From the IMG/VR virus record IMGVR_UViG_3300022756_000003: 38,492 bases of DNA; one strand, written 5' to 3'. Numbering within the stretch: the first letter of the stretch is position 1; each line of letters opens with the position of its first letter. The notes under the pieces are model-generated. The model had not been told where the DNA came from. It worked only from the letters and a program-made list of their open reading frames with translations, and made no database searches. This document shows positions 671 through 30,769 of this stretch, piece after piece. Position numbers and translations under genes: made by a program. The DNA comes from a virus.

Positions 671-1558
671 CTATCCGTTCCAGCTCACCGGTTGCCCGGG
701 GAGCCACGCGGCGACGCCCAGTTCGAACGCCTGGAAGCGCCCCTCCGGCTTGTCCTCGCTCGCCGGGATGACCTGCTCTTCGCTGACCGGGCGGCCCCGG
801 TAGCGGCCGGCGATCCACTCGTCACGCCACGCCGTGGGGAGGGCGAAGCCGGGGTCGGTGGCGCGCCAGTAGTCCCCCCAGAGGGCCGCCTGGACGGCCG
901 CCTGCTGCGCTCCGGTCAGGATCACGAATACCTCCTGCGGCGGCGGGGCCGCCCCCAGCTCGTTCGCTCGTGCCACGCTCGCCCAGAACCAGTCCTGCGG
1001 GTCAAGGGTCACCGCCGCGACCTGGGCTTGCGACCACCCGGTTTGCCAGAAGTCCCACGAGCCGCCCGGCGGCACGTCGTGCCAGAGGGCCAGGTGCAGG
1101 TGGGCGTACGGTTGAAACCCTGACCTCCCGCACGTGCCCAGCTGTTCGCCGGCGACGACCCGTTGCCCGGGGATGACGGTCATGGTGTTGAGGTGCGCCG
1201 CGTGCAGATAGCACCGCTCGGCCGCACGCTCGTCGTCGAGGTACAGCGCGAGGTGGTTCCCGAACCCCTGGCTCACCCCATTCCACCAGAGGACGTCGGT
1301 GACGACCCCACCGAGCGGGGCGACCACCGCCGCGCCCAGATCTGCGTCTCCCCCGCCGAGGCTATTCGCATCAATCGCCTCGTGGAACGCGCCACCGGCG
1401 TCACTCCATTGCAAGTAGCTGTAGCCGCCCATGAGGACGGCCGCTTCGCCGCTGCCGGCGGTGACGCCCTGGAGGACGACGTAGACGCCCGACACCTGGT
1501 CCACGGCGGGGATGGTGGTCGGGGTGAACGTCGGCGGCAGGTCGTTGGGGTGGGGCAT
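671..1558 (-). CDS. M23 (LytM-type) zinc peptidase, probable endolysin
   Basis: 295 aa, ATG 1558. Motifs HEAID (HxxxD), YLHAAHL, GQRVVAGEQLGTCGRSG and AHLHLAL (HxH). About 110-aa C-terminal domain of unknown type. A small TM ORF follows directly. Confidence 0.9.
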   Translation of the reverse strand: MPHPNDLPPTFTPTTIPAVDQVSGVYVVLQGVTAGSGEAAVLMGGYSYLQWSDAGGAFHEAIDANSLGGGDADLGAAVVAPLGGVVTDVLWWNGVSQGFGNHLALYLDDERAAERCYLHAAHLNTMTVIPGQRVVAGEQLGTCGRSGFQPYAHLHLALWHDVPPGGSWDFWQTGWSQAQVAAVTLDPQDWFWASVARANELGAAPPPQEVFVILTGAQQAAVQAALWGDYWRATDPGFALPTAWRDEWIAGRYRGRPVSEEQVIPASEDKPEGRFQAFELGVAAWLPGQPVSWNG

Positions 1559-7722: not shown

Positions 7723-8877
7723 CTAGCTGGTGCGCGCGTCCCGGGCGTCGGTCGTCGCGCGGCGGGCGGTCGCGCGGGACGCGCCGTCGTCGGCCCGGTC
7801 GCCCGAGGCCAGGGCGCGCTGCGCGTTGGCCTCGAGCACCCGCGACTTGTCGCCCGAGAGGGCCAGGGTCTCCTCCTCCGTGGCGCCCAGCGCCCCGACG
7901 AAGGTGCCCTGGGTCAGCACGGCGGCCGGGTAGCTCGCCGCCCGCGAGGGCTGCTGGAGCGTCACCGGGTTGGCCGCGACCCACGCAAGTCTAAAGGTCA
8001 CGCGGAGCGCCTTCAGGTCCTGCTGCATCAGGTTGGCCACGACCAAACCGCCGGCGTCGGTGATGACCCCCTCGGTAAAGATCCGCATGTTGATATCGTC
8101 CCGCACGGCAATCTTGAAGCAGGACGTGTCGAGGGCGAACGCGAGCGCGTTGGCCGCGCCGGCGGCGAAGCCGGTGAGCCCCATCTTGGAGACCTTGGCG
8201 GGGATGTTCCACACCTCCCCGGCCCACTTCCCGCTCTGGGCGCCGCTGGCGGCGGGCCCGGCGTTGGGGTAGAGGAACCCGCGGTTGCCGTCGCGGGCGT
8301 TCCGCAGCACCCCCCGCATGGTCTGCCGGAGCAGCCAGGCGTCCGCCTCGTAGCCGTCGCTCTCCAGCAGCATGAGCGCCGCGTTGAGGTCGTCGAAGAT
8401 GTCGTGGGTGGCGCTGGCCACCGCGCCGGTCACGACGTTGCCCGCGGAGGTGGCGTCGGTCAAAATTCCGTTCGGCCACAACGAGGGCTTCCCCGTCCCG
8501 AAAAGCACGGCCCCATCAATAGCCGCCCCCATGCTCTCGGTGATCTGCGGCTTCAGGAGCGTCCAGAGGTCGTAGTCGGCGTCGTCGTAGATGGTGTCCG
8601 GGATGGGCACCAACACGGCCAGCTCCTCGGCGTTCAGGTAGAGATTGTCGAATTTGGCGTCGGACGTCTGCTTCAGTCCCGAGTCACCATTGACAAAGTA
8701 AGCCAGCGGCTTCCGGTCCAGGATGGGCAGGCGGCGCTGCTTGCGGGACATCGGCACCCGGTCGAACGTGGAGAGGGCGAAGGACTTCTCGGTGGTGGCG
8801 GTGATGATCTCGTGGGCGGCGTCTTCCGGGATCAGCGGGCCCGCTTCGGTCCGGTCGATCATGGCGCTGTACGACAT
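7723..8877 (-). CDS. Major capsid protein, HK97 fold
   Basis: 384 aa, ATG 8877. Typical N-terminal block LIPEDAAHEIITATTEKSFAL..RVPMSRKQRRLPILD..AYFVNGDSGLKQTSDAKFDNLYLNAEELAVLVPIPD..DDADYDLW…ITESMGAAIDGAVLFG. No delta domain. About 55-aa charged C-terminal extension. Confidence 0.95.
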   Translation of the reverse strand: MSYSAMIDRTEAGPLIPEDAAHEIITATTEKSFALSTFDRVPMSRKQRRLPILDRKPLAYFVNGDSGLKQTSDAKFDNLYLNAEELAVLVPIPDTIYDDADYDLWTLLKPQITESMGAAIDGAVLFGTGKPSLWPNGILTDATSAGNVVTGAVASATHDIFDDLNAALMLLESDGYEADAWLLRQTMRGVLRNARDGNRGFLYPNAGPAASGAQSGKWAGEVWNIPAKVSKMGLTGFAAGAANALAFALDTSCFKIAVRDDINMRIFTEGVITDAGGLVVANLMQQDLKALRVTFRLAWVAANPVTLQQPSRAASYPAAVLTQGTFVGALGATEEETLALSGDKSRVLEANAQRALASGDRADDGASRATARRATTDARDARTS

Positions 8878-8928: not shown

Positions 8929-9939
8929 CTACCGTTTGGTCAACTCGCCTCGCAGCCAATCGTTCATGGAGGGCACCCCGTTGCGTCCCCGCCCGATACC
9001 GGCGACCAGCTCGGGTTCTCCGTCGTCTTCGGCGCGCTGGGCCCGGCGCTGCGCGTTGTCGCGCTTGCGCTGGGGCCCCCCGCGCAGCTTGCGCGCCTCG
9101 TCGGCGCGCCACACCTGCTCGAGCCGGCGCAGGGCGGCGCGCACCAGCTGCAGCCGCCCGTCGAGGCCCTCCGGCAGGTCGGCCAGGAGGGGGGCGCGGT
9201 CGGCCTCCGGCAGGGCACTCATGATCGGGTCAATCGATACCCGGTCGTAGTGCTCGACCAGCCCCCGGACGAAGCCCTCCTGCTGCTGCAGGGCGTCGAC
9301 CTGCTCCTCCAGCTCGGCCGCCTTGTAGACGTCCGTCTGGCGCAGCTCCCGCGCCTGCTGCTTGAGCCCCTCCACCCGCTGCTGGCGCGTGAACCGGCCC
9401 TGCTCGTCGCGCTGCTTGTTGGCCCGCGCCACGCGCCGGTCGATCTCGCTCTGGATGGCCCGCGAGAACGGGCCGTCCGCCTGGGCCAGCTCCTGCAGCT
9501 CGTCCCCGGAGAGGGACGCCAGCTGCTGGCTGATCGCCCCGGCCCGCTCGCTCAGGGGTTGAGCGGGGGGCGCGTCGGGGCGTGGGGGGGAGGGCTCCCG
9601 GCCGTCTGCGTCGGGGCGCGAAGCGGGCTCACTCCGCGGGCCCTCCGGCGCGCCGGCCGCCCCGTCGCTGCGAACCCCCTGCCGACCGAAGAGGCGGTGC
9701 AGGAAGTCCGACGCCGGTGACGCGCGCTCCGCGGGGCCCTCGGCACCGCTCTCGGCCCGCCCGTCGGCGGGGGGAGGGGGAGGGTTCGGGGAGCCACCCG
9801 CAGAGCGGCCGTCCTGAGGGCGGCTCGGCGGCCGCCACCCGGTGTCGGGGGTGCGCGAACGCGCCGGTTCCGGCGGCGCTTGGCCCGCTTGGGGCGCTGG
9901 GGCTGCCGGTGCGGCCGCGTCCTGACCCGTCTCGCTCAC
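8929..9939 (-). CDS. Scaffolding protein candidate
   Basis: Directly upstream of the capsid gene. Pro/Ala/Gly-rich N-terminal half, then a long charged helical half (ELQELAQ…RQQRVEGLKQQARELRQTDVYKAAELEEQVDALQQQE…). GTG 9939 is preferred because the track start (9993) lies inside the predicted promoter. Confidence 0.7.
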   Translation of the reverse strand: MSETGQDAAAPAAPAPQAGQAPPEPARSRTPDTGWRPPSRPQDGRSAGGSPNPPPPPADGRAESGAEGPAERASPASDFLHRLFGRQGVRSDGAAGAPEGPRSEPASRPDADGREPSPPRPDAPPAQPLSERAGAISQQLASLSGDELQELAQADGPFSRAIQSEIDRRVARANKQRDEQGRFTRQQRVEGLKQQARELRQTDVYKAAELEEQVDALQQQEGFVRGLVEHYDRVSIDPIMSALPEADRAPLLADLPEGLDGRLQLVRAALRRLEQVWRADEARKLRGGPQRKRDNAQRRAQRAEDDGEPELVAGIGRGRNGVPSMNDWLRGELTKR

Positions 9940-9964
9940 GGTTGCGGTGGGCTCCCTGCGGGCG

Positions 9965-9993
9965 ATGGTAGGCCCTGTCAAGCAAGTAGTCAA
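9965..9993 (-). promoter_or_regulatory. Candidate promoter for the scaffold-capsid genes (TTGACT-N17-TACCAT)
   Basis: Minus strand reads aTTGCTTGACtacTTGCTTGACagggccTACCAT. -35 TTGACT = 9993..9988 and -10 TACCAT = 9970..9965, spacer 17. A 9-mer TTGCTTGAC occurs twice, 12 nt apart. This is the lowest-GC spot between two long genes. Confidence 0.45.
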
Positions 9994-10093: not shown

Positions 10094-11866
10094 CTAGCTC
10101 TGGGGGATATCCCAGTCCTGGTAACGACCATTGGACCAGACGGTGCGGGCCCGGCCCGGCTGCCCGGACGGCCCCAGGTCTTGCGCCGCGATCTCCGGCA
10201 CCTCGCTCTGGGGCGCCGCGGACAAGGGCCCGGAGTAGCGCACCTGGTTCATCAGGCTCGTCAGGTCCGGCCCGGTGGGCAGCGCCGGCAGGGGGACGTT
10301 GACGTCGCGCGCCGTGGCGGGGCTGACCCGGGCCAGCAGGCGGTTCACGGCGGCGTCGGCCAGCTCGTTGACGTTGGGCACCACCTTGCGGAAGTTGGCC
10401 GGGTCGAACGCCCCCGCGCTGAACTGGAACGGCGCCGCGGCGTTGGGGCCGCCCATGGGCCCGGCCGCCATGCGGTTGGCCAGCCCGCCGAGGTCGCTGA
10501 TGTACTCGGTGGCCCGGGTGCCCTGGCCCAGGGTGATGGCCTCCTGGCGGCCCGCCTCGCCCGCCGCGTGCGCCAGCTGCTCCCGCTGCCGGTTGAGGGT
10601 GTCGACCCGCCCCTGCTCGGCGGTGGTGCGGGTGAGGTTCTCCTGCTCGAGCTTCCGGCGCTCCTCCTCGGCGGCGGCCTTGTAGCCGGCGAGGGGGCCC
10701 TCCACGTTGAGCTGCATCCAGCGGTCGAACTGGGCCTCGGCCTGGTCGGGGCTGATCTGCCCGGACTTCTGGAGGTCGGTGAGCCGCTTCAGCTCCGTGC
10801 GGGCCAGGTCCTGCCGGCGGGACGCCTCCGCCTGGTACTGGGCCCCGGCGCCCCCGAACTTGGGCTGGTTGGCCAGCTCGGCCGCCTCCACGGTGGCCTT
10901 CTGCAGGCGGTCGGCCAGGGCCCGCCCCTCGGGGGTCTGGGTGTCGAGGTTGAAGATCTGCTGCCCGGTGCGCTTGTCGTAGCCCACCAGGCGGCCGTCG
11001 GTCGTCTGGAGGGTCTGGGGCAGGCTCTCGAAGAGCTTCTGCCCTTTGGTGCCGTCCGGCTTCTGGAGGTAGACGCTGCCGTCCGGGTCGGTGACGGTCT
11101 TGGCCGCGGCGGCCGGGCCGTTGATGGCCGTGATCTGCTTGGTGTAGGGGTCGAAGGCCCAGTAGGCGCCCTGCCCGTCGGTGATGACGCTGCTCGAGGT
11201 GCCCGGCCCGGAGGGCTGCCCGAGGATGCCCGTGTCCGGCTTGGCGCTGCCGGGGACGTAGCTCCACTGGCCGTTGTTGTAGGTCTCGGTGATGACCGCC
11301 GTGTAGTCCCGCCCCTGGGCGTCCTTCCAGGTGGTGCGGGTGGTGCGGCTGTCCCCGTTCTTGGCCTTGTCCTTCTCGGCCGCCTTGGCCTTCTCGTCGT
11401 CCCGGATGCGGTTCTCCTCGGCCGCGATCTGGGCGGTGACGGTGGTCAGGAGGGTGCGCAGGGCGGGGAGGGCCTTGCTGGCGTTGACGCCCGCCTCGGA
11501 GTTGGGGTCGGCGGAGATGGCCGCCTCGGCGGCGGCGATGGCGTTCTCCACGTCCCCGCGCTGCTTGTTGAAGTGCTCGAGCGTGGACGGGGGCGTCGCC
11601 GGCGCGCCCGGCGCGGCCGCCGCCGCCGCGGGCGCCGCGTCGGGCGCGGCCGGGGGGCGACCCAGCTCGGTCGTGCTGCCGCCGCTCCCGCTCGGCGCAG
11701 CGGGCGGCGCGGGCGGGGGCACGTAGCCGGGGGCGCCGGGGGGCGTCGACCCGGGGAGGATCGCCTCGCCCCCCCGGTTGAGGGCGCCGGCGCCGGCGGC
11801 GCTCGTGCGGTTGAGCCAGTCCGCCGCCGCCCGGCTCAGGCTGCCGATCTCGTCCCACCAGGCCAT
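10094..11866 (-). CDS. Internal virion / ejection-type protein (590 aa)
   Basis: ATG 11866 abuts the upstream stop. Pro/Ala-rich N-terminal part, then charged coiled-coil-like blocks (AEENRIRDDEKAKAAEKDKAK; EEERRKLEQENLTRTTAEQ). No enzymatic motif. Confidence 0.85.
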   Translation of the reverse strand: MAWWDEIGSLSRAAADWLNRTSAAGAGALNRGGEAILPGSTPPGAPGYVPPPAPPAAPSGSGGSTTELGRPPAAPDAAPAAAAAAPGAPATPPSTLEHFNKQRGDVENAIAAAEAAISADPNSEAGVNASKALPALRTLLTTVTAQIAAEENRIRDDEKAKAAEKDKAKNGDSRTTRTTWKDAQGRDYTAVITETYNNGQWSYVPGSAKPDTGILGQPSGPGTSSSVITDGQGAYWAFDPYTKQITAINGPAAAAKTVTDPDGSVYLQKPDGTKGQKLFESLPQTLQTTDGRLVGYDKRTGQQIFNLDTQTPEGRALADRLQKATVEAAELANQPKFGGAGAQYQAEASRRQDLARTELKRLTDLQKSGQISPDQAEAQFDRWMQLNVEGPLAGYKAAAEEERRKLEQENLTRTTAEQGRVDTLNRQREQLAHAAGEAGRQEAITLGQGTRATEYISDLGGLANRMAAGPMGGPNAAAPFQFSAGAFDPANFRKVVPNVNELADAAVNRLLARVSPATARDVNVPLPALPTGPDLTSLMNQVRYSGPLSAAPQSEVPEIAAQDLGPSGQPGRARTVWSNGRYQDWDIPQS

Positions 11867-13669
11867 CTACCCTGTCCTTCCCAGCTGCAGCAGGTCGCGC
11901 ACCCAGGCCGGCATGGGCCCGGCGTCGCCCGCGGGGGCGCCCGCGCCCGGGGCCACCGTACCACCCCGGCCGGCGGCGATATCGACGAAGTGCCCCGGAC
12001 GGTCGAACTTCTCGGCGTCCAGGTGCGGGCCGGTGGTGTTCCCCGACACGCCCACCTGCTGCAGCCGCTGCCCTTGCTCCACCCGCTGTCCGGGGCGGGT
12101 GGCGATGGAGCCCGGCTGGGCGTGGGAGAGCCGGTAGTAGTAGCCGTTGTCGCCCCGCAGGAGGGTCATCCCGCCCCAGCCGTGGTTGGCGTTGCGGTCG
12201 CGCTCGTCGGGCGCGTCGAAGACCTCCACGACGGTGCCCGAGACGGGGGCCACCACCGGCGCGCCGTAGGGCGCGGTCAGGTCGGCGCCCACGTTGCTCG
12301 AGGGCAGGGCCACCGTGGCGCCGGCGCTGCGCGCCTGGGTGCCCCCGAACGGGTTGTTCACCGCCCCCCACTTCTGGCCCGCGACGGGCCACACCTCGTC
12401 GGTCTGGGTCGCCCCGCCCGCCTCCGGTCCACCGGCGCCGCGGCCGGCCGCCAGCAGGTCGCGCACCCAGGGGGGCGCGTCGCCGGGCGCCGCGGGGGCG
12501 GCGGACGTGAGGCGGCCCCGTTCGGGCGCGTCCGGGGCCACGGGGGCGGCGCCGGTCAGGGTCGACCGCAAGTAGGACACGGCGTCGAAGTTGCGGCCCA
12601 GGCCCCCCTGCGCCCCGGCGCCGGTCTGGATGCCCTCGCCGATCCCGATGTGCAGGTGCGCGGGCGTCCCCGCCGCGTTGCCCGTGCGCCCCACGTCGCC
12701 GAGCTGCTGCCCGGCGCCCACCCGCTGGCCGGTCTTCACCTGGGGGGCATTCTTGAAGTGGGCGTAGTAGTACGTCCGACCGTCGTCCCCCAGCACGCCG
12801 ACGTTGTTGCCCCCGAGGGCGTCGTCCGTGCTCGCCCACTGCACCACCCCGGGCACCATCGCCACCACCGGCGTGCCCTCGGGCGCGAACAGGTCGCTCC
12901 CGCCCACCCCGGCCTCGGCCCCGTGGTGCAGCTCGACCTTGCCCGTGTAGCCCGCCACCGGGAACACCGCGCGGGGCGCCGCCCCCGCCTCCGCCCCCCC
13001 GCGGCGTCCGCCGCTCGCGGGGACGGGGGCCTCGGACGGTGCGCCGCCGGAGAGCAGATCGCGCACCCACGGCGGGGCGTCGCTCGGGGCGTCCGCGGCC
13101 GGGCGGGCGGCGGGGGTGGGCGCGGAGCTGGCCCCCGAGGTGCCGAACAGGTCGCGCACCCACGGGGGCGCATCGGGCGGCGCGGCGCCGCCGGGGGCGC
13201 CGGCGTCGACCGGTGCCGAGCCGATGCCCTGGCGCCCGGTGACGCCGACGGTGCGGGCCCCGTACCAGGCGCCCCAGCCGTTCTTCGCCGCCGCGTCGAG
13301 CGCGTAGTCGGTGGCGGCGCGCCACGCGGCGGGGTCGCCCGGCTGGTAGCCGGTCTGCGCCGTGAAGGCGTTGCCCATCCCGGCGGTGGTGCCGAACTGC
13401 TCGTACCCCGGCCCGCCGTAGTGGAGCTGGTACGGCCAAAAGGACTTGCCCGTGGCGAACGACCCGGTGCGGTTGGGCACCAGCCCGCCCTCGCTCTGGG
13501 CCACCTTGATGGCCACCTCGGGGTCGATCCCCCGCTTGCTCGCCGCCGCCCGGATGTAGCCTTCTACGTCGTCGCCGCCGGTGTCGCCGCCCCGCTGCTC
13601 GGGCGCGCGGTAGCTCGTCGCGCTCGAGCCCAGCAGATCGGCCACCCACGGCGGTGTGGCCGCCATCAC
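11867..13669 (-). CDS. Virion-associated polyvalent peptidoglycan hydrolase: transglycosylase-like domain plus two M23 domains
   Basis: 600 aa (GTG 13669 / ATG 13666 after GGGAG). N-terminal GIDPEVAIKVAQSEGG…FWPYQLHYGG is transglycosylase-like. M23 domain 1: LHHGAEAGVGGSDLFAPEGTPVVA…YYYAHF…GTPAHLHIGI. M23 domain 2: VGADLTAPYGAPVVAPVSG…YYYRLSHA…GPHLDAE. A motif PPWVRDLL occurs five times. Confidence 0.9.
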   Translation of the reverse strand: MMAATPPWVADLLGSSATSYRAPEQRGGDTGGDDVEGYIRAAASKRGIDPEVAIKVAQSEGGLVPNRTGSFATGKSFWPYQLHYGGPGYEQFGTTAGMGNAFTAQTGYQPGDPAAWRAATDYALDAAAKNGWGAWYGARTVGVTGRQGIGSAPVDAGAPGGAAPPDAPPWVRDLFGTSGASSAPTPAARPAADAPSDAPPWVRDLLSGGAPSEAPVPASGGRRGGAEAGAAPRAVFPVAGYTGKVELHHGAEAGVGGSDLFAPEGTPVVAMVPGVVQWASTDDALGGNNVGVLGDDGRTYYYAHFKNAPQVKTGQRVGAGQQLGDVGRTGNAAGTPAHLHIGIGEGIQTGAGAQGGLGRNFDAVSYLRSTLTGAAPVAPDAPERGRLTSAAPAAPGDAPPWVRDLLAAGRGAGGPEAGGATQTDEVWPVAGQKWGAVNNPFGGTQARSAGATVALPSSNVGADLTAPYGAPVVAPVSGTVVEVFDAPDERDRNANHGWGGMTLLRGDNGYYYRLSHAQPGSIATRPGQRVEQGQRLQQVGVSGNTTGPHLDAEKFDRPGHFVDIAAGRGGTVAPGAGAPAGDAGPMPAWVRDLLQLGRTG

Positions 13670-13711: not shown

Positions 13712-14017
13712 ATGACCACCGCTCGCGTCCCCCGCCCCCGCCCCGAGGCGTACACCGCCCCGGTGAGCCCGCTCCTCCCGGGCGCACCCGGGCGCCTCGA
13801 GACCGCCGTCGCCCTGCTGTACCTGCCCGTCGGCGTCTTCGCCGTGTTCGGGGGGGCCATCTCGTTCCTCGTGCTGACCGCGGTGGGGATCGACGTGATG
13901 GGCGGCGCCGGGTGGTGGGAGCCCGCCCCCTTCGTCATGTGGTTCGGGGGCACGCTGGGGTTCTCCTGGGGCGTTGGCCGGCTCGAGCGGTGGCTGCGCC
14001 GCGTCATCCGAGGCTGA
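13712..14017 (+). CDS. Membrane protein (101 aa) encoded antisense to the structural operon (moron candidate)
   Basis: 3' end of shadow ORF 10181..14017. ATG 13712 follows GGGAG. Very high GC3 in this frame. Hydrophobic helices TAVALLYLPVGVFAVFGGAISFLVLTAVGI and APFVMWFGGTLGFSWGVG. It fills the 334-nt gap between two minus-strand genes. Confidence 0.7.
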   Translation: MTTARVPRPRPEAYTAPVSPLLPGAPGRLETAVALLYLPVGVFAVFGGAISFLVLTAVGIDVMGGAGWWEPAPFVMWFGGTLGFSWGVGRLERWLRRVIRG

Positions 14018-17000
14018 CCCCGTACTTCTTCTCGATGGCCTTGCGCTGACGGGCGAGCGCATCGGCATCGCGCCGCGTCTTGTTGACCAGGGCGAAGGCG
14101 TCCGGCTCCTCCTCGCGCAGCTTGGCCCGCCAGCCCCCCTCACCGTACTTCTTCTTGTACTCCGTCTCGAGCGACTGGGCCCGGGAGATGGCCGCGTTCT
14201 GGGTGCGCACCTCGTCCGGGGTGCCCTGCACCCCCACGTACTTGGGGACGGCGTCCCACTCCCGCTGGGCCTGCTGCTTGGTGCCCCGGGTCACGCCCTC
14301 GCCCAACACCACGTCGGCCCGGTCGGCGGCGGTGCGCAGCGCGTCCTGCAGCGCGCTCTTCTTGCCCGCGTCGTCGAGCTTGGCGTACCCCGGCTTGGCC
14401 ATCGCCTCCCGCACGGTTTTGCCGGTCTCGCTCCCCAGGGCGCGCTGCGCGGCCCGGCGCTGTTCGGGGGTCGGCTTCGCCCCCTCGTACGCCTCGGTGC
14501 GCCCCAGCACGCGGGGTTGGAGGCCGAGGCGGGCCAGCTCGAGGCCCTCGTCGGTCTGCACGTCACCCCGCTCGCCCCAGTACCGGGAGAGGCCGGTCCC
14601 TTCCCGGCGCTGGTCCTCCCCCGTCACCGGGTCGATGCGGGTGGGCACCAGCGCCCGCAGCCCGGTGCGGCTCGCCACCTGCTCGGGGAACGTCTCCGCC
14701 TGGCGCTCGTAGGGGTCGGCGGCGCCGATGATGGTGGTGAGGGGCCCGGTGAAGCGCGAGGGCTGGCCGGCCAGGAGCGACCGGGTGGCCCCCGCCGCGC
14801 CCTGGGGGCCGTTGACGGCGTCGACGAAGTCGACCATGTCAGACAGGTAGCTGGCCTTCAGCCCCCACCGCCAGGCCGCGTTGTAGCCGTTCTCGAGCAC
14901 CGCGCCGGGGTCGCCCCCCTCCGCCTGCGCCTTGCGCGCGGCGTCCAGCGTGGTGGCGATGGCGCTGGCCTGCATCCCCAAGGAGCCCAGGTAGCGGCTG
15001 GGGATGCGCTGCCCGGTCGGCGTCGCGACCGTGTTCCACTGCTCGCCCTGGGCCTCCCGGCGCCGGCGCTCGTTGGGGTCGGCCGGCGGGTCGCCGGTGA
15101 CGCCGCCGTTGAAGTAGGCGATGGTCAGGGCCGTGGTCGCCGCCATCCCGGCCGCGGCCCGCCCGGCGAACTCCCGCGCCGCGGCCGTGTCGCCCCGCTT
15201 GAGCGCGCGCACGAGGCCGACCCCCGCCTCCGCCGGCACCAAGGAGCCGATGGTGGCCCGCAGCAGCCGTTCGGGCATCAGCACGTAGGGGGCCATGCTG
15301 GTCACGGCCGCGGCGACGCCCTTATCCAGCAGGCTGGCGTTCGGGTCGCGGATGGCCCCCTTCAGCTCGGTCAGCTTCTTGGCCACCGCCGAGTTGGGCC
15401 CGCCCCAGGTGGCGAAGTCGCCGGCGGACTGGGTCATCCGGGCCGTGTCGGCGGCCCCCAGCCGGTGGCGGGCGGCCCGGGCGCCGGCGCCGGCCTCGTT
15501 GACCGTGCGCCAGAACTCGTCCAGGGCGGCGTTGGCGCGGGTGCCGGCGGTGAGGACGGTGGGGGCCAGCCCGCCCCGGGAGAGCAGGTCGCCGCTGGTC
15601 TGGGCGCCGGTCATCCCGGGGTTGAACTGGGTGGGGCCGGCGCCGAACGCCTCGCGCACCTTGCGGCCCGCCCCGGGGAGGGAGCGCACCATCCCGCCGA
15701 GGTCGACGAGGGCGTCGATGGGGCGCCCCTCGAACGCCACGCCCGCAACGCGCTCCACCGTCCGGGCCATCCCGGAGGTGAAGTTGGCGAGCTGCGACGT
15801 CGGCGCCGCCAGCGGGATCGCCCCCATCAGCTCGGGGATGTCCCCGAGGGTGATCCGGCCCCGTCCCGGCGGCGCCCCCCGGCCCGCGGCCCCGGCGGCG
15901 GCCCCCAGCACGTCGTCCGCCAAGGTGCCGGAGGCGACCCGCCCCAGCTGGCGCAGGTTGGCCCCGCCCAGGGCGCCCGCGGCCGACCCCAGGGCGAAGC
16001 GCCCGGCCCGCTCCTGCCACGTGGCGTCCTCGTCCGCCGTCGCGGCGGCGGCCACGCCCCCGGCCGTGCCCGCCGCCAGGTCGAAGGCCCGCTCCCCGGT
16101 CGTCTGCGCCCCCCGGGCCAGGAAGGGGTCGGTGGCGCGCGTGGCCGCCCCGAGGAGGCCGTCGCCGGCAGCGGCGCCCTCGGGCACGACCCCGGCGGGC
16201 AGCACGTCCTCCAGCCCCTTGGCGGCGAGGTACTCCCGCGCCGCCCGCTCGCCCTCCGCGCCCTTGCCCACGGCCAGCAGGCGCAGGTCGTCGGCCGCGG
16301 CCTCGCCGTCGGCCCCGCGGCGCCAGAGCCGCTGGATGGCGTCGAACACCCGCTGCTCGGCCTCGCCGTCCACGGCGCGCTGCGCCTGCTGCTCCGGCGT
16401 GAGCCGGGGCATGCGGAAGCGTTGCCCGCTGCGGATGCCCAGCCCGCCGGCCTCGTCCGCTTCCGCCGCCGCCGCCTGCCCGAAGCGGTACGGGACGCGC
16501 CCCAGGACGTCGCCCACGCCGCTCAGCACCTGGGGGGCGGCCGTGGCCAGCTCCCCCACGCCCGCGCCCATGTTGGCGCCCTCGAAGCCCCGGGTGACCA
16601 CCCCCGCCGGTGGGGCGCCGGCCGCGATCCCGGTGCCGATCCCGAGGGCCGCGCCGGCGGGGGCGAGGGCGGCGGGAGCGGCGCGCAGCCAGCTGGGGGC
16701 GTTCGCCGCCAACCCGCCCTCGATGGAGCCGATGGTGCCCCCCGGCCCCACCGTCGACATGACGCCCTGCGCCGCGGCCTGCGTCTCCGGGAGCCCGCCG
16801 GCCGCCCCGGCCAGCTCGCTCGCCACCTCCCCCGGCGCCGTGAAGGGGGTCGTGCCCACCTGGAAGGCGCCCGCGGCCTGGGCCGGCAGGTCGGCCCCCT
16901 GCGGGCCGAACCCGGTCATCGCCTGGACGGCCTGCCCGGTCTTGTTCTGTACCCGCCCGAGGCCCTGCCACGCCTCACCCCCGGCGCCGGCCAGCACGCC

Positions 17001-17396
17001 CAGGGGCATGGGCAGGTCGGGGCGCTCGGCGGCGTAGCGGTCGGCGGTGGCGTTCAAGTTCGCCGCCTGCCGGTCGGAGAAGTCCTGCAGCCCGGCGGCG
17101 CTGGGGATGGCCCCGGCCACGTCGCTGCCGATCTGCCCGATGCGCGCCAGGGCCCCCTGCGCCCAGTCCCCCACCCCCTCGAGCGGGGAGGGGGCCGGCA
17201 GGGGCGGCGGGGCGGGCGGCGGCGGTGGAGGCGGGAGGTCCGGCACCAACCCGTCGAGGGCGGAGGTGGCCCGGCCGATCCAGTCCCCCGCGGTGGCCCC
17301 GGCCGCGGCGATGCGCTGCCGGGCGACCTGCTCGGCCCGGCGGCGCTGGAAGTCGAGCCAGCTCCCGGCGTCTACGGGCGGTAACGCGCCGTCCAT
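14004..17396 (-). CDS. Very large internal virion / ejection-type protein (1130 aa)
   Basis: ATG 17396. Ala/Gly-rich N-terminal third with a poly-Pro tract, and a more complex C-terminal half (…YFNGGVTGDPPADPNERRRREAQGEQWNTV…LVPTRIDPVTGEDQRREG…). The function is inferred from size and position. Confidence 0.9.
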   Translation of the reverse strand: MDGALPPVDAGSWLDFQRRRAEQVARQRIAAAGATAGDWIGRATSALDGLVPDLPPPPPPPAPPPLPAPSPLEGVGDWAQGALARIGQIGSDVAGAIPSAAGLQDFSDRQAANLNATADRYAAERPDLPMPLGVLAGAGGEAWQGLGRVQNKTGQAVQAMTGFGPQGADLPAQAAGAFQVGTTPFTAPGEVASELAGAAGGLPETQAAAQGVMSTVGPGGTIGSIEGGLAANAPSWLRAAPAALAPAGAALGIGTGIAAGAPPAGVVTRGFEGANMGAGVGELATAAPQVLSGVGDVLGRVPYRFGQAAAAEADEAGGLGIRSGQRFRMPRLTPEQQAQRAVDGEAEQRVFDAIQRLWRRGADGEAAADDLRLLAVGKGAEGERAAREYLAAKGLEDVLPAGVVPEGAAAGDGLLGAATRATDPFLARGAQTTGERAFDLAAGTAGGVAAAATADEDATWQERAGRFALGSAAGALGGANLRQLGRVASGTLADDVLGAAAGAAGRGAPPGRGRITLGDIPELMGAIPLAAPTSQLANFTSGMARTVERVAGVAFEGRPIDALVDLGGMVRSLPGAGRKVREAFGAGPTQFNPGMTGAQTSGDLLSRGGLAPTVLTAGTRANAALDEFWRTVNEAGAGARAARHRLGAADTARMTQSAGDFATWGGPNSAVAKKLTELKGAIRDPNASLLDKGVAAAVTSMAPYVLMPERLLRATIGSLVPAEAGVGLVRALKRGDTAAAREFAGRAAAGMAATTALTIAYFNGGVTGDPPADPNERRRREAQGEQWNTVATPTGQRIPSRYLGSLGMQASAIATTLDAARKAQAEGGDPGAVLENGYNAAWRWGLKASYLSDMVDFVDAVNGPQGAAGATRSLLAGQPSRFTGPLTTIIGAADPYERQAETFPEQVASRTGLRALVPTRIDPVTGEDQRREGTGLSRYWGERGDVQTDEGLELARLGLQPRVLGRTEAYEGAKPTPEQRRAAQRALGSETGKTVREAMAKPGYAKLDDAGKKSALQDALRTAADRADVVLGEGVTRGTKQQAQREWDAVPKYVGVQGTPDEVRTQNAAISRAQSLETEYKKKYGEGGWRAKLREEEPDAFALVNKTRRDADALARQRKAIEKKYGVSLG

Positions 17397-19448: not shown

Positions 19449-20090
19449 CTACTCCTCTTCCTGCGTCCCGGGCGGCACCAACGCGCCCGGGCCCGGCTGT
19501 CCCTGCGGGGTGAGCGCCGGCCAGCCGCCGGCGGGCGTGGTGTCGACGACGCCGCCGGGCGTGGGGCCCACGGGCGTCTCCTGGAAGCGGGACACCGGCA
19601 GCGCCACCGGCAGCCCGTGCTGGCGGCGCCAGGCGGCCCCGCCGTTGATGGCCGTGGCCAGCCCCTCCGGCCCGAGGCGCTGGTACTCGGCCCACCACTG
19701 CTTGGGGTCGACCTGGCCCTGCGGGGTGAACAGGGTCTCGCCGTAGTAGCGGGCCTGCTCCTGGGGCGACACCCGGGCCGAGAAGGGCGCGTACACCCCG
19801 TCCATCATGGCCCCGGCCACGTCCTGCGCCGTGCTCTCGACCCAGTGGGTGACGTCGTCCGCCACGCTCTCCAGGCTGTTGGGCGCGACCCGGGGCGCGC
19901 CGCCGCCCGGCCACGCCCCCGTGCGCCGGCGGTTGCCGCTCGAGCGCGCCCGGCCGATGGTCGCCGGGGGGCCGCCCAGCACCTCTTGTGCAGCCGCCGG
20001 CGCGTCCTCTCCCAGCGGCCCGGGCATCCCCTCGGGCAGCCCCACGGGCTCGGACGGGACACCGTTGGCGGGGGACTCGGGGGCGGCCAC
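19449..20090 (-). CDS. Hypothetical virion-module protein (213 aa)
   Basis: GTG 20090 abuts the portal stop. Central region has normal composition (…DVTHWVESTAQDVAGAMMDGVYAPFSARVSPQEQARYYGETLF…). Confidence 0.8.
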   Translation of the reverse strand: MAAPESPANGVPSEPVGLPEGMPGPLGEDAPAAAQEVLGGPPATIGRARSSGNRRRTGAWPGGGAPRVAPNSLESVADDVTHWVESTAQDVAGAMMDGVYAPFSARVSPQEQARYYGETLFTPQGQVDPKQWWAEYQRLGPEGLATAINGGAAWRRQHGLPVALPVSRFQETPVGPTPGGVVDTTPAGGWPALTPQGQPGPGALVPPGTQEEE

Positions 20091-22307
20091 CTAGGTGCCC
20101 ATCTGCTGGCCCGGGAGGGGCCGCATGTTCGGCGGCGGCCCCTGCACGTTCGGTCCCCCGCCGGGGTTGCTCGGCAGGCCCCCGGGCGCCATGTTCGGCC
20201 CGGTGCTGCCGGCGCCGCCGACGCTGCCCGGTGGGGGCGGCGCGAAGGGCATGCCTTGGCCGGGGGCCATGGCGTCCGGCGCGCCGAGCTGCAGCCCCCC
20301 CGGCCCGGGCATCCCGGGCGCCATCCCTGGGGGGGCACCCGGGGGCATCCCGGGCGGCCCCGGCGGACCGGGGGCGCCGCCCAGCTCTTCCATGGCCTGG
20401 GCCTGCTGGATGCCCAGGAGCTGGAAGATGCGGTCGGTCAGGCGCTTCTGGATCTCCGGGCTCCGCTTGAGGTTCTCCACCAGGAGCTGCCGCTCGACGG
20501 CGCCGGGGTCCTGCCCCAGCTCCTCCATGGCCTGCGTCCGGGAGGTGAGCCCCGCCTGCAGCATCTCGACCTGGGTGCGCACCTCGAGCACGCGGTTGGA
20601 GGGCACCTCCGCGTCCAGGGCCACCCGGTAGCGGTGCACCCCCTTCAGCTCGTCGGGGCCCACCGCCAGCCAGCCCTCCCGCGCGCCCCGGACGCCGGGG
20701 TTGTACCCGCGGCGGGGGGACACCGTGGGCAGGTTGCCCCAGCAGTACACCTTCTCCCCGATGCACTCGTCGATCAGGTAGCTCTCGAAGCCCACCCGCT
20801 CGCTCAGGGCGAACTGGGCGTTCCCCAGCAGGGGCGAGTAGCGCAGGCTCCCCAGGTAGGCGCTCTGGTTGAGGGCGTAGCCGCTGGCCCCGGTGTCGGC
20901 GCCGGCGAGCGCGTCGGGCAGGATGCGCTTGAAGATGTTGACCGTGTCCTCCTTGGCCTGCTGGAGGTCGATCCCGGTGCGGGGCGGCTCGATGGGGGAC
21001 ACGTCGAAGGGCAGCACCTCGCCGGGCACCACCTGCACCGGGCGCTGGGCGTCCCGCTCCCCGCCGTCGATGCCGAAGGGGGCCACGCCCGGGCCGGCCG
21101 CGGCGCCGATGGCGCTCACCATGTTGGCCCCCGGCGGGGCGTTGCGCTTCCAGGAGGGGAAGCCCGTCATGAACGCCGCGTTCGAGGTGAGCGTGAGCAG
21201 CTGGTCGTAGAGCTGGAACAGGTTCAGGTAGCCGAAGAGGACGCCCAGGGACATCAGCTCGGGCTCGCGCTGCCCGGTGGTGATGCCCCCGGCCCGGAAG
21301 TAGGGGCCCCGCAGGGTGCGCGTCTCCGCGACCCCGTAGTGGTGGCGCACGCTCTTGACGATGGTGCCCTTCCCCAGCGCGGCCCCGCCGCGGGAGGCGC
21401 CCTGCCCCGGCCCCACCAGCGAGTAGTGCACGTCCTGCCAGTCCCACAGCTCCACCAGATCGAGGCTGGCGACGCCGGACATGACCTGGCCCCACTGGGA
21501 GCGGGGCAGGCCCAGGTGCTCCTCGGGGACGACGCGGCCCCCGGAGCCCAGCCCGGCGCCGAAGCGGGTGAGCGCCTCGAGGTAGGGGATGGACTTGATC
21601 TCCGCCGCCAGGGTCATCCCGCCGGCCTCGGAGGCCCAGTGGTAGAAGGTGCTGGGGGGGATGTCCGTCGACTTGATGGGGTAGGCCGCGGCCCGCTTGG
21701 CCTCGTCGGTCAGCTGGTCGTACGCCTGCTCCCGCTGGTGGGCCTTGCCCCGCCCGTCGGCGTACTCGCCGTACTCGGCGTCCTCCGGGTCACGCATCCG
21801 CCGGTCGAGGTCGCGCACCGTGCGGGAATACGCACGCCACGCGGATTGACTCCGTTCGACGGTCTTCATGATCGCTTCGCCGTAAGCGACCAGCGACCAC
21901 ATGTAGCTGCGGAAGAGCTGCCGGCCCGCCTCCTGCTCCTGGCGCGTCCACGACGCCGAGAAGAATTTCTCTCTGAGCTCGGCGTTGTTCTGCGCCTCGC
22001 TCCCGCTGGCGACCGGCTCGAAGTTGACCTCCGGCGCGTTCACCGTCAGGGCCGCGGTGATGGAGTTCACCATGTCCAGCGCCAGGGGCGCCTTGGTGAC
22101 GATGGTGCTCTCCTCGTACGCCTTGGGCACCTTGACGTCGTAGCGCCCGAAGAGCACCCGCTCCGTGGCCTGGAGGTTCTTGTCCCGCAGCGCGAAGTCG
22201 CTGAGCAGCTGCTGGGCGACGTCGGTGACGTAGCCCTCCGCGGCGGGCACGTAGGACTTGCCGCGGCCGCGGACGCGCTCGTCGTCCGGGCGCTTGCGTT
22301 GGGCCAT
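20091..22307 (-). CDS. Portal protein candidate (738 aa) with Pro/Gly/Met-rich C-terminal tail
   Basis: ATG 22307 (MAQRKRPDDE…). The track ORF extends further upstream through shadow sequence. Called from its size, its place as first gene of the structural operon, and its divergence from terL. The last ~95 aa are a PGM-rich low-complexity tail in a high-GC3 frame. Confidence 0.75.
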   Translation of the reverse strand: MAQRKRPDDERVRGRGKSYVPAAEGYVTDVAQQLLSDFALRDKNLQATERVLFGRYDVKVPKAYEESTIVTKAPLALDMVNSITAALTVNAPEVNFEPVASGSEAQNNAELREKFFSASWTRQEQEAGRQLFRSYMWSLVAYGEAIMKTVERSQSAWRAYSRTVRDLDRRMRDPEDAEYGEYADGRGKAHQREQAYDQLTDEAKRAAAYPIKSTDIPPSTFYHWASEAGGMTLAAEIKSIPYLEALTRFGAGLGSGGRVVPEEHLGLPRSQWGQVMSGVASLDLVELWDWQDVHYSLVGPGQGASRGGAALGKGTIVKSVRHHYGVAETRTLRGPYFRAGGITTGQREPELMSLGVLFGYLNLFQLYDQLLTLTSNAAFMTGFPSWKRNAPPGANMVSAIGAAAGPGVAPFGIDGGERDAQRPVQVVPGEVLPFDVSPIEPPRTGIDLQQAKEDTVNIFKRILPDALAGADTGASGYALNQSAYLGSLRYSPLLGNAQFALSERVGFESYLIDECIGEKVYCWGNLPTVSPRRGYNPGVRGAREGWLAVGPDELKGVHRYRVALDAEVPSNRVLEVRTQVEMLQAGLTSRTQAMEELGQDPGAVERQLLVENLKRSPEIQKRLTDRIFQLLGIQQAQAMEELGGAPGPPGPPGMPPGAPPGMAPGMPGPGGLQLGAPDAMAPGQGMPFAPPPPGSVGGAGSTGPNMAPGGLPSNPGGGPNVQGPPPNMRPLPGQQMGT

Positions 22308-26766: not shown

Positions 26767-27155
26767 CAGCACCACTGCCAATGGCGGAGTCCGCCCGTCC
26801 AGGGGTGCGCGATGGTGAAGGCCGCCACGTGCGCCGCCGCCCACGGGTCGTACGGCGAGGCGCCCTCGTAGCCCGCCCAGCGGGAGAGCGTCCGCCAGGT
26901 CGACGGGAGGTACTGCATCAGCCCGGCCGCCCCGCTGCTCCGGTTGGTCGCCCACGGCTGGTAGCGGCTCTCCCGGTAGGCGATGCGGTAGAGGCACCCG
27001 ACGCTCACCCCCTGCTCGGCGGCGGCGTGCTCGAGGGCGTAAACCACCTCCTCGGACTGGGCGTTGCCGTCGCTGCAGCTCAGCATCACGTAGCTGGCGA
27101 GCACGCAGCCCGCGGCGAAGCCCCACAGCCAGTTGGTCCAGGCGCGCCACCTCAT
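26766..27155 (-). CDS. Lytic transglycosylase (SLT domain) with N-terminal signal/anchor
   Basis: 129 aa. Hydrophobic N-terminus WTNWLWGFAAGCVLASYVMLSC, then the SLT motifs AYRESRYQPWATNRSSGAAGLMQYLPSTW. Confidence 0.9.
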   Translation of the reverse strand: MRWRAWTNWLWGFAAGCVLASYVMLSCSDGNAQSEEVVYALEHAAAEQGVSVGCLYRIAYRESRYQPWATNRSSGAAGLMQYLPSTWRTLSRWAGYEGASPYDPWAAAHVAAFTIAHPWTGGLRHWQWC

Positions 27156-27583
27156 GCGCTCACCTCCTCGTCGTCGTCGTCCGCTGCGGGCGCGAGCAGG
27201 ACGTCGTGCGCCCAGCGGGCCAGGTAGGGGTGCGGGAGGTTCCGGCCCCGCTCGGCCTCGGCGACGGTCGAGCGGGACAGCCCCAGCGCCGCGGCCAGGT
27301 CGCGCTGGGAGAGCTTCGCCTTCCGCCGCGCTCGGAGGAGCAGGTCGGTGCTCACCCGCGGGGGCGGGGGCTCCCCGGGCCGGTGGCCGGGGCGCAGCTC
27401 GGCCGCCACCCGGCGGGCGTTGTCCGCCAGCAGCCCTTCCTTGAGGGCCTGCGCCCGCACCTTGAAGTCGTAGGCCTGGCGCTGCACGGCCGCCGCCTGC
27501 CGGTGCAGCTCGGTCAGGTCGGCCACCGTCTCGACGCGCACGATGCGCAGCCCGTCCGGCTCCCGCTGCCAGCGGATGGTCAT
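27152..27583 (-). CDS. XRE-family HTH protein (143 aa)
   Basis: ATG 27583 (ATGA overlap). C-terminal LLLRARRKAKLSQRDLAAALGLSRSTVAEAERGRNLP, then an acidic tail DDDDEE. Confidence 0.8.
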   Translation of the reverse strand: MTIRWQREPDGLRIVRVETVADLTELHRQAAAVQRQAYDFKVRAQALKEGLLADNARRVAAELRPGHRPGEPPPPRVSTDLLLRARRKAKLSQRDLAAALGLSRSTVAEAERGRNLPHPYLARWAHDVLLAPAADDDDEEVSA

Positions 27584-28005
27584 GGGGTCACCCCCGCGGC
27601 GATGCTGTAGCGGTAGGGTTTCGCCGCCGTTCGGGTGACCCGCCCCGTGCGGCACAGGATGGTCAGGCGGGCGGAGACGGTCCCCTGGATGATCCCCGTC
27701 GCTGCCGCGATGTCGTAGGAGGTGCAGCGGGGGTGCGCCGCGATGGCGGTCTCGATGCGCTCCACCAACAACCGCGGCCGGCGGGCGAGGGCCTCGGCCA
27801 GGTCGCGCTCCTGGCGCGCCCGGTTCGCCGCGCGCCGCGCCAGCAGGGGGGCCACGTTGTACGTCCGCTTCGGCGGCGCCGCGGCGGGCGGGGGCGCCGC
27901 CCGCGGGACGTCGCGCTCCCGGGGCGGCGAGGCGACGGGGTCGAACGCGACGACGGTGCCGGCTTCCTCGACGGTGACGCGGTGCCCTACAATCGGTTCG
28001 GTCAT
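27580..28005 (-). CDS. Winged-helix-like DNA-binding protein (141 aa)
   Basis: ATG 28005 after AGGAGG. C-terminal CTSYDIAAATGIIQGTVSARLTILCRTGRVTR resembles a MarR/wHTH recognition segment. Confidence 0.7.
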   Translation of the reverse strand: MTEPIVGHRVTVEEAGTVVAFDPVASPPRERDVPRAAPPPAAAPPKRTYNVAPLLARRAANRARQERDLAEALARRPRLLVERIETAIAAHPRCTSYDIAAATGIIQGTVSARLTILCRTGRVTRTAAKPYRYSIAAGVTP

Positions 28006-30613: not shown

Positions 30614-30643
30614 ACGGTACAGCCGCCTTGCAGCGTGCGTCAA
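30614..30643 (-). promoter_or_regulatory. Candidate early (Cro-side) promoter TTGACG-N18-TACCGT
   Basis: Minus strand reads tcTTGACGCACgctgcaaggcggctgTACCGTtcc. It shares the 9-mer TTGACGCAC with the terL-side promoter. Confidence 0.4.
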
Positions 30644-30706
30644 GACCGTTTCGCCAGAGATAGCGCGCTTTTTTGTACCGCCGCCCGTTGCTGTTCTCTG
30701 GCCTGC

Positions 30707-30735
30707 TTGTATTTCAGCACAATTCGTGGTATGCC
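30707..30735 (+). promoter_or_regulatory. Candidate repressor promoter TTGTAT-N17-(TGg)TATGCC
   Basis: TTGTAT at 30707..30712. TATGCC at 30730..30735, preceded by an extended -10 TG. It lies 35 nt upstream of ATG 30770, with GGGAGAAGGG between. Confidence 0.4.
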
Positions 30736-30745
30736 AGAATGGCAC
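30716..30745. promoter_or_regulatory. Operator-like element O2
   Basis: AGCACAATTCgtggtatgcCAGAATGGCAC. It shares GCACAAT with O1 and with a third site at 33494, and overlaps the spacer and -10 of the repressor promoter. Confidence 0.35.
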
Positions 30746-30769
30746 GGGCGGGCCGGTGAGGGAGAAGGG

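Follow-up and report, generated by a model that had tools for sequence, protein, structure and literature searches.

The window analysed here is the whole 38,492-nucleotide stretch of IMG/VR virus record IMGVR_UViG_3300022756_000003. On its minus strand, positions 11867..13669 hold an open reading frame (ORF) for a protein of 600 residues, a cell-wall hydrolase built like beads on a string and called the hydrolase below. In this protein, three domains are separated and flanked by five copies of a short tryptophan-containing motif. The guanine-plus-cytosine (GC) content at third codon positions (GC3) is 0.96 in this frame, in a window of 74% GC. The features of the gene are given below in the order of translation, with the predicted local distance difference test (pLDDT) as the measure of confidence in modelled structure.

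11867..13669, minus strand: coding sequence of the 600-residue hydrolase; start GTG at 13669 or ATG at 13666, stop TAG at 11867-11869
13631..13654, minus strand: motif copy 1, PPWVADLL, residues 6-13, N-terminal; predicted helix 7-15
13220..13573, minus strand: divergent SLT-like (lysozyme-like) domain, residues ~33-150; pLDDT >93; supported by hhalign; candidate catalytic Glu60 in SEGG
13145..13168, minus strand: motif copy 2, PPWVRDLF, residues 168-175, the first of two in the linker between the SLT-like and M23 domains; predicted helix 169-174
13052..13075, minus strand: motif copy 3, PPWVRDLL, residues 199-206, in the same linker; predicted helix 200-206
12554..12967, minus strand: first M23 domain (M23a), residues ~235-372; HLH motif present
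12452..12475, minus strand: motif copy 4, PPWVRDLL, residues 399-406, between M23a and M23b; predicted helix 400-408
11954..12412, minus strand: second M23 domain (M23b), residues ~420-572; family-defining, with the non-canonical site NVGAD / PHLD
11888..11911, minus strand: motif copy 5, PAWVRDLL, residues 587-594, six residues before the C-terminus; predicted helix 588-598

All five copies match the pattern P-[PA]-W-V-[RA]-D-L-[LF]. A preliminary description of this DNA had reported five such copies in the 600-residue protein, and each was recovered with its core where that description had put it. For a 600-residue protein of the same composition, 1e-6 matches are expected by chance, and none of 20000 shuffled sequences contained any match. 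When the window was read in all frames, no further true copy of the motif was found outside the five. Direct reading of the translation also showed a stretch rich in Gly, Ala, Ser and Pro after every copy, in agreement with the Gly/Ala-rich stretches of the preliminary description.

A structural model of the hydrolase was obtained with AlphaFold2 from an alignment of 51 sequences (mean pLDDT 73; predicted template modelling score, pTM, 0.40). Three confident domains are seen at residues ~33-150, 235-372 and 420-572 (pLDDT >90), together with five short helices located exactly at the motif copies. The helices have pLDDT values of ~45-66, and the segments flanking them stay below 50. The conserved positions of the motif, namely the Pro cap, the Trp and residues i+1, i+4 and i+5, describe one face of a helix. 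The motif is predicted to form a Pro-capped amphipathic helix of about two turns, within Gly/Ala/Pro linkers that are otherwise disordered and at both termini of the protein.

At the DNA level, the five copies appear as a 23-nucleotide repeat with 87-91% identity, and the similarity ends at the edges of the motif. Val is always encoded by GTG and Arg always by CGC; the codons for Pro, Asp and Leu vary among copies. These synonymous differences show that the peptide is conserved beyond what recent copying of DNA explains, though some copying history is visible. Copies 1 and 3 (13631-13654 and 13052-13075) use the rare Asp codon GAT, which accounts for 5% of usage in the structural genes. As a side observation, this codon creates a GATC site in each of the two copies.

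The preliminary description had attributed one transglycosylase-like and two M23 domains to the protein. The two M23 domains are well supported: Pfam PF01551 (Peptidase_M23) matches two stretches of the hydrolase with an expectation value (E) of 9e-33, and Foldseek gives a probability of 1.00 between the model and many M23 structures. The M23b site is non-canonical. It reads NVGAD where active enzymes read HxGxD, and PHLD instead of HLH, so that two canonical His ligands are gone, the first zinc-ligand His being replaced by Asn and the last ligand by Asp. M23b is the best-conserved region of the hydrolase family. It may be a non-catalytic, activator-like domain, or else belong to an M23 subfamily of its own that is specific to virions and has an altered metal site. 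Two proteins of 2765 and 3194 residues from contigs of 41% GC (L106/L107) contain this M23b subtype as well (VNNPFGG.Q, N.G.D, GPHLDYE). The extra M23a domain retains HLH and reads GVGGSD, as compared to HGGSD in relatives such as P0071; its first metal ligand may therefore be missing too.

The transglycosylase-like label, for which the support comes from hhalign, is plausible but not secure. The N-terminal domain (residues ~33-150) had no match in Pfam or among PDB sequences. In homologs, PF01464-type domains stand in its place; a profile of the N-terminal domain aligned with these (hhalign, 83.5%, E 8e-6), and Glu60 fell on the catalytic Glu in that alignment. When the domain was modelled separately on 12 aligned sequences, the model was poor (pLDDT 63) and had no Foldseek match. 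The SLT-like domain is 38-42% identical to domains in virion proteins of Ochrobactrum, Rhizobium and Sulfitobacter phages.

In order to follow the motif across relatives, homologs of the hydrolase were collected. Of the 202 homologs that the protein search returned, we examined the best 120, many of them on contigs of 38-46 kb. These relatives form an uncultured clade of high-GC phage contigs of ~40-45 kb. A typical homolog has ~400 residues, with one wall-glycosidase-type domain at the N-terminus and one peptidase at the C-terminus. The N-terminal slot is filled by an SLT-like domain or by either of two PF01464 types, the C-terminal slot by M23b, M23a, NlpC/P60 or others. As compared to the usual homolog, the hydrolase of the window has one additional domain, M23a, and one additional copy of the motif.

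Three or more copies of the Trp motif were found in 51 homologs, with 189 copies in total. Among these 51 proteins, a copy lies in the first 12 residues in 38 and in the last 16 residues in 48, and linkers carry one or two copies. In some homologs (P0020, P0038, P0039 and P0041), three copies follow one another along a domain-free C-terminal tail. Across the family the consensus is [GA][GAD]-A-P-[PAD]-W-[VAYWL]-[RQK]-[DEA]-[LVFY]-[LVA]-[AGS], which simplifies to A-P-x-W-h-x-x-h-h (h = hydrophobic). The variant changes from one protein to another; PPWVRDLL, PDWVRDLM, EPWAEDLL, DPQWYRDYL, PDWLQQAW, GDWVSAFR, PxWWxAV and PDWFKGYV were all observed.

Within one protein, the copies resemble each other. 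The motif identity is 0.60 within a protein as compared to 0.27 between proteins, or 0.29 between proteins for the same terminal position, and the within-protein value was reached in none of 2000 permutations. The copies therefore evolve in concert within each protein. In addition, the same variant flanks M23b, M23a, NlpC/P60, SLT-like and two PF01464-type SLT domains, at least five catalytic families. Similarity of the motif correlates weakly with identity of the flanked domain (r = 0.34 for M23b, r = 0.21 for the SLT-like domain), and the identities of M23b and of the SLT-like domain are uncorrelated with each other (r = 0.09). In P0008, M23b is 93% identical to that of the window, yet the protein carries the WY variant (DPQWYRDYL-type copies). 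Overall, the variant of the motif is independent of the type of catalytic domain that it flanks.

We then asked where else the motif occurs. A relaxed pattern was run in six frames over 108 related loci (1.4 Mb, 67% GC) and matched only in orthologs of the hydrolase. Thus the motif is not a generic linker of high-GC proteins, a possibility that had been raised at the outset and that these loci speak against. Two wider searches also gave nothing. A profile of three concatenated copies had no match in 5.8 billion proteins, and as known members were missed too, the method is too weak for this result to be informative. A degenerate DNA pattern for PPWVRDL found no match in IMG/VR, a failure of a motif-only search that we judge technical. 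In the literature searched, we found no ejection protein described as having such a motif. The motif has the properties expected of a short linear motif: a conserved island of 3-12 residues in disordered sequence, its position kept among orthologs. The earlier proposal of a functional short linear motif is upheld in the sense that this is a genuine, selected motif punctuating a three-domain wall hydrolase of virion type.

The hydrolase gene lies in a block of structural genes. In minus-strand order, this block comprises a portal-sized protein next to a divergent large terminase, then proteins of 213, 675 and 1130 residues, the hydrolase, a 590-residue protein, a scaffold-like protein and the capsid protein. 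An fn3-like protein and larger tail-candidate proteins follow beyond the HK97-type capsid gene. The features of the window outside the hydrolase gene that matter here are the following.

20091-22304, minus strand: portal-sized protein; no Pfam or PHROG match, the portal label being drawn from position and size only
19449..20090, minus strand: 213-residue protein (gp213) beside the putative portal gene; its residues 69-149 are fused to an SLT-like domain in related proteins; candidate docking partner
14004..17396, minus strand: 1130-residue protein, upstream of the hydrolase; matches the PHROG 'internal virion protein'
13712-14017, plus strand: 101-residue ORF on the opposite strand, in the 334-bp gap between the 1130-residue and hydrolase genes; ATG start, GGGAGA upstream, GC3 0.95
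10094..11866, minus strand: 590-residue internal-protein candidate (gp590); its ATG directly abuts the hydrolase stop; candidate docking partner
8929-9993, minus strand: scaffold-like protein, preceding the capsid gene
7723-8877, minus strand: HK97-type capsid protein; the Phage_capsid match starts at residue 13
671-1558, minus strand: third gene with an M23 domain, 295 residues, at the far end of the structural block; Pfam E 1.4e-9
27152-27655, minus strand, and 30635-31381, plus strand: helix-turn-helix (HTH) regulators, near the serine recombinase gene
31378-33249, minus strand: large serine recombinase (Resolvase, Recombinase and Zn_ribbon_recom domains), near the two HTH regulators

The PHROG match of the 1130-residue neighbour places the hydrolase in a block of internal or ejection-protein genes. 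The hydrolase gene is inside the structural module, apart from the gene at 671-1558 on the minus strand, which is the likelier endolysin. From this context and from structural similarity, we infer that the hydrolase is a virion-internal wall hydrolase that is ejected. The large serine recombinase gene shows that the phage is temperate, and the window is probably a complete or near-complete genome of such a phage. No near relative, and no cultured one, was found among 50,697 GenBank phage records. Capsid proteins of Arthrobacter, Bifidobacterium and Mycobacterium phages share ~37% identity with that of the window.

Several side observations concern these neighbours. Mosaicism is seen in the structural module: three related loci (L005, L016 and L017) have capsid proteins 78-82% identical to that of the window but portal-like and internal proteins with only 32-52% identity to those of the window, and the pattern is opposite in L018. 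About 110 codons at the C-terminal end of the portal-sized protein encode a long low-complexity tail rich in Pro, Gly and Met (..GPPGPPGMPPGAPPGMAPGMPGPGG..), also present in relatives. The 101-residue ORF encodes two hydrophobic helices. Small reverse-strand ORFs were seen at the same gap in relatives, namely a hydrophobic one of 60 residues (L017), one of 61 residues (L014) and one of 74 residues (the P0031 contig), and L018 has a Cys/His-rich ORF there that is HNH-like by eye; the gap looks like a slot for accessory genes inserted in the structural operon. Finally, short amphipathic segments with Trp occur in low-complexity sequence within the first ~300 codons of the 1130-residue protein (PPVDAGSWLDFQRRR, GDWIGRA, GDWAQGALARIG) and the first ~25 codons of the 590-residue protein (MAWWDEIGSL, ADWLNRT). 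It may be that short Trp helices are common among these internal proteins in general.

The pattern of the motif is robust, widespread and evolutionarily unusual. As for its function, we infer binding to a partner, with a role in packaging and ejection. Tentatively, and at a little less than an even chance, we read the motif as a multivalent docking tag: through it, exchangeable hydrolase cargo would be held on the complex of internal (ejection) proteins. Several weak contacts, each of a helix in a groove, would hold the hydrolase non-covalently to another protein of the ejection complex; the tethered hydrolase would be packed into the procapsid and would then exit with the ejection proteins. 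Candidate partners would be gp590, the start of which abuts the hydrolase stop, and gp213, beside the putative portal gene. As relatives keep the motif at the same places, tethering inside the virus particle is likelier than a role as cleavage site. Because the tag brackets each domain, catalytic domains could be exchanged without loss of incorporation. The motif also has what characterizes cargo tags, being a short peptide common to cargo with differing domains and located in disordered termini and linkers.

Relatives without the motif provide a first line of support. In five related proteins (P0099, P0105, P0108, P0109 and P0114), a gp213-like module is joined to an SLT-like domain via a Pro/Gly linker (blastp E 7e-13 to 1e-8), and the repeated Trp motif is absent from all five. 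On a 56-kb contig (L105), a 1533-residue protein consists of SLT and M23b domains and a long tail ending in the C-terminal signature of gp590, again with no motif. These motif-free relatives carry covalent fusions to internal proteins, which supports docking of the hydrolase to the ejection complex. Two further candidates for gp590-type fusions, P0035 and P0058, were discounted as assemblies with probable frame errors. Between their Pro-rich linkers, SLT-like fusions (P0105, P0108, P0114, P0079, P0103 and P0116) share the conserved sequence GGVVTQPT(L/V)ALIGE(A/Q)GPEAVVPL, which we record as a separate observation.

A second line comes from gene arrangement. The hydrolase stop and the gp590 start abut or overlap in the window and in relatives, and this supports docking to the ejection complex. 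Abutting or overlapping genes are common for partners made in matched amounts. Moreover, net-acidic variants such as EPWAEDLL fit a protein-protein contact better than binding to an anionic membrane.

Other results weigh against this reading. The link between the L105 protein and gp590 spans 47 residues only (E 3.5e-5), and no hydrolase domain is fused in any of 28 close homologs of gp590. Co-variation was studied on ~10 genomes, the metagenome and genome scans having given few loci. The correlations over this set are weak; no neighbour stands out and no partner was identified. Spearman coefficients between similarity of the motif and similarity of the neighbour are 0.16 for the portal, 0.34 for gp213, 0.34 for gp675, 0.04 for gp1130, 0.33 for gp590, 0.26 for the scaffold and -0.21 for the capsid protein. 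The types of N-terminal helix in gp590 do not follow the motif variant. A further objection is that the concerted evolution could come from gene conversion among the 23-nucleotide repeats and not from a shared binding site; the rare GAT codon common to copies 1 and 3 speaks in this direction. In a variant-specific scan of the neighbour proteins, no repeated copy of the hydrolase motif was found in any of them. Trp-containing sequences in gp675-like and large proteins are conserved features there and show no co-variation with the hydrolase motif.

Docking to the shell was considered as the main role and rejected. Genomes with capsid proteins 78-82% identical to that of the window carry the WW or WY variants; capsid protein and motif do not vary together. 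A tail of the scaffold-like protein (..SMNDWLRGEL) resembles the C-terminal copy of the motif, PMPAWVRDLL. In 8 of 9 related loci this tail, G-R-G-R-N-G-x-P-[ST]-M-N-D-W-L-R, hardly varies, as compared to 34-66% identity over the remainder of the protein. As this constancy holds whatever the motif variant, scaffold or shell docking was not retained as the main reading. The tail is probably a capsid- or portal-binding tip. Docking, one of two roles put forward in the preliminary description, is the best fit to the evidence, then, but the shell is disfavoured as the partner because similar capsids go with differing variants. It is possible, if rather doubtful, that in these uncultured phages, a large clade with podovirus-like, temperate, high-GC genomes, a portable address tag in several copies serves as an assembly code: a Pro-capped Trp helix, lineage-specific and uniform within each protein, would bracket every cargo domain and load freely exchangeable wall-hydrolase domains onto the ejection complex.

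Two other explanations of the concerted evolution stand beside docking. The motif helices could be homotypic stickers, which bind each other within or between chains and compact or oligomerise the hydrolase in a sticker-and-spacer manner. The copies would then have to match one another rather than an external partner. Copies are indeed homogeneous in each protein, the variant is independent of the catalytic domains and of all neighbours tested, and the short helices are spaced by long disordered segments. Against this, the AlphaFold2 helices have low confidence and the model has no confident overall arrangement, eight residues make a short helix for a stable bundle, and fusions that replace the motif point to association with a different protein. 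We consider stickers unlikely. Alternatively, gene conversion among the 23-nucleotide repeats may homogenise the copies, with a tolerant partner that reads only the generic P-x-W-h-x-x-h-h.

The helices might also act after ejection by binding a component or protein of the host envelope, in which case the variant would track the host and not the phage. It is true that variants differ between phages with very similar virion proteins, as the capsid comparison shows, and that catalytic domains change too, as expected for adaptation to the host wall. Still, a helix of 8-10 residues is not a known wall-binding module, net-acidic variants speak against binding to anionic membranes, and fusion of motif-free domains to virion proteins is unexpected for a host address. 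Such post-ejection targeting has, in our opinion, a small probability. Two related ideas were rejected. A membrane anchor is unlikely as the main or general role because several variants are net acidic. Mimicry of the FtsZ C-terminal peptide (D-x-P-x-F-L-R), which the motif resembles, was set aside because EPWAEDLL, DPQWYRDYL and PDWWSAV diverge beyond what a conserved host target allows.

The preliminary description had offered polyprotein processing as the other role of the motif, with a protease cutting at or near each copy and freeing separate enzymes. Copies do mark the boundaries of domains, with flexible Gly/Ala stretches after them, and head proteases that trim internal proteins are known elsewhere, in T4 and in giant phages. 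Nevertheless, no protease family was detected with Pfam or PHROGs in the 31 ORFs scanned, several of which are matchless so that absence is not proven. The scaffold-like protein has its own gene ahead of that for the capsid protein, in which the match to Phage_capsid starts at residue 13. Cutting at residues 6-13 and 587-594 of 600 would free only a few residues. Copies also occur in tandem within one linker and, in homologs, three at a time in domain-free tails. Finally, the conserved residues form the face of an amphipathic helix and not an extended cleavage consensus. Processing at the motif is very unlikely on these grounds.

Slightly less credible again is the idea that the repeats are recombination junctions only, that is, DNA-level scars or substrates of domain shuffling kept alike by gene conversion, the peptide having no function. 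It draws on the five repeats and their identity, on pervasive mosaicism, with uncorrelated identities of the two conserved domains, and on the invariant GTG and CGC codons together with the shared GAT. What contradicts it is that the peptide is kept while Pro, Asp and Leu codons differ synonymously, that Trp and the hydrophobic i+1/i+4/i+5 pattern persist in variants of unrelated DNA, and that terminal copies have no domain on one side, the identity ending at the motif edges. The faintest chance is given to an autoinhibitory latch, each helix blocking the active site of the neighbouring enzyme until ejection: occluding segments do regulate certain M23 enzymes (structures of LytM and ShyA are among the Foldseek matches), but the variant and the domain type assort independently, with one variant beside unrelated catalytic folds and different variants beside near-identical domains, and the motif helices have pLDDT values of ~45-66 as compared to >90 in the folded domains.

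How ejection proteins are recruited into procapsids and retained at the portal is poorly understood, and the few solved pre-ejectosomes show large folded interfaces. If the motif is a docking tag, a short, transferable and multivalent peptide would give a simple rule for this recruitment and would explain why wall-hydrolase domains are freely swapped between phages. It would also serve as a handle for annotating internal proteins of metagenomic phages, and possibly as a tool to pack foreign proteins into phage heads for delivery into cells. Independently of these uses, concerted evolution at 3-5 sites of one protein, uncoupled from the domains that they flank, makes a clean case of linear-motif co-evolution.

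As an enzyme, the hydrolase joins the virion-borne wall hydrolases already known. In T7 gp16 and other podovirus virion hydrolases, a wall-degrading domain resides inside the particle among internal core proteins and acts at entry. The T7 protein gp16 is one large chain that has a single transglycosylase domain, at its N-terminus, and is not known to carry a repeated linker motif. The closest solved example is gp28 of cyanophage A4 (A-4L). The top PDB match of Foldseek is the A4 pre-ejectosome (9k2v), the remaining listed matches being M23 peptidases; the top BFVD match is an internal protein of Anabaena phage A-4L, over 314 columns, and gp28 is the best PDB sequence match for M23b. A4 gp28 has lytic-transglycosylase-like and M23 domains and is part of the pre-ejectosome, a layered assembly on the portal whose ejection proteins are held together by helices that neighbours insert into clefts; gp28 is retained in the capsid in this way (PMC12002296). 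The hydrolase resembles gp28 in pairing M23 with a domain that may be of lytic-transglycosylase type. However, gp28 carries its hydrolase domains in covalent fusion with four helical bundles from which the complex is built, whereas the hydrolase lacks this helical-bundle half and has a second M23 domain and five short helices in disordered linkers. Also, gp28 keeps the canonical HxGxD and HLH, which M23b of the hydrolase does not.

Two families of cargo tags can be compared to the motif. In T4, the capsid targeting sequence (CTS) is present as a single N-terminal copy that the prohead protease removes. In contrast, each protein here has 3-5 copies of the motif, some of them internal or C-terminal, and the window yielded no protease gene; the two sequences are not similar. 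Among internal proteins that otherwise differ, the CTS is the one conserved element; it sends cargo to the prohead core and can bring in foreign proteins as well (PMC3012670). The second family is that of the encapsulin targeting peptides, of which a docking tag would be the phage-ejectosome counterpart. In geosmin-synthase-like cyclases, the motif GPTGLGTSAAR lies between the two domains and is repeated at the C-terminus (PMC8346489). Encapsulin peptides, which address enzymes to an HK97-fold compartment, share with the hydrolase motif a short conserved sequence in disordered regions rich in Gly, Pro and Ala. They bind, or are proposed to bind, the shell protein, whereas the motif variant does not follow the capsid protein, and they are extended and Gly-rich, whereas the motif is a predicted Trp helix in a phage ejection protein. 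Overall, what is new with respect to the T4 CTS and the encapsulin tags is the presence of 3-5 copies that bracket every domain, as a predicted Trp helix, with no associated protease and with a variant that does not follow the shell protein.

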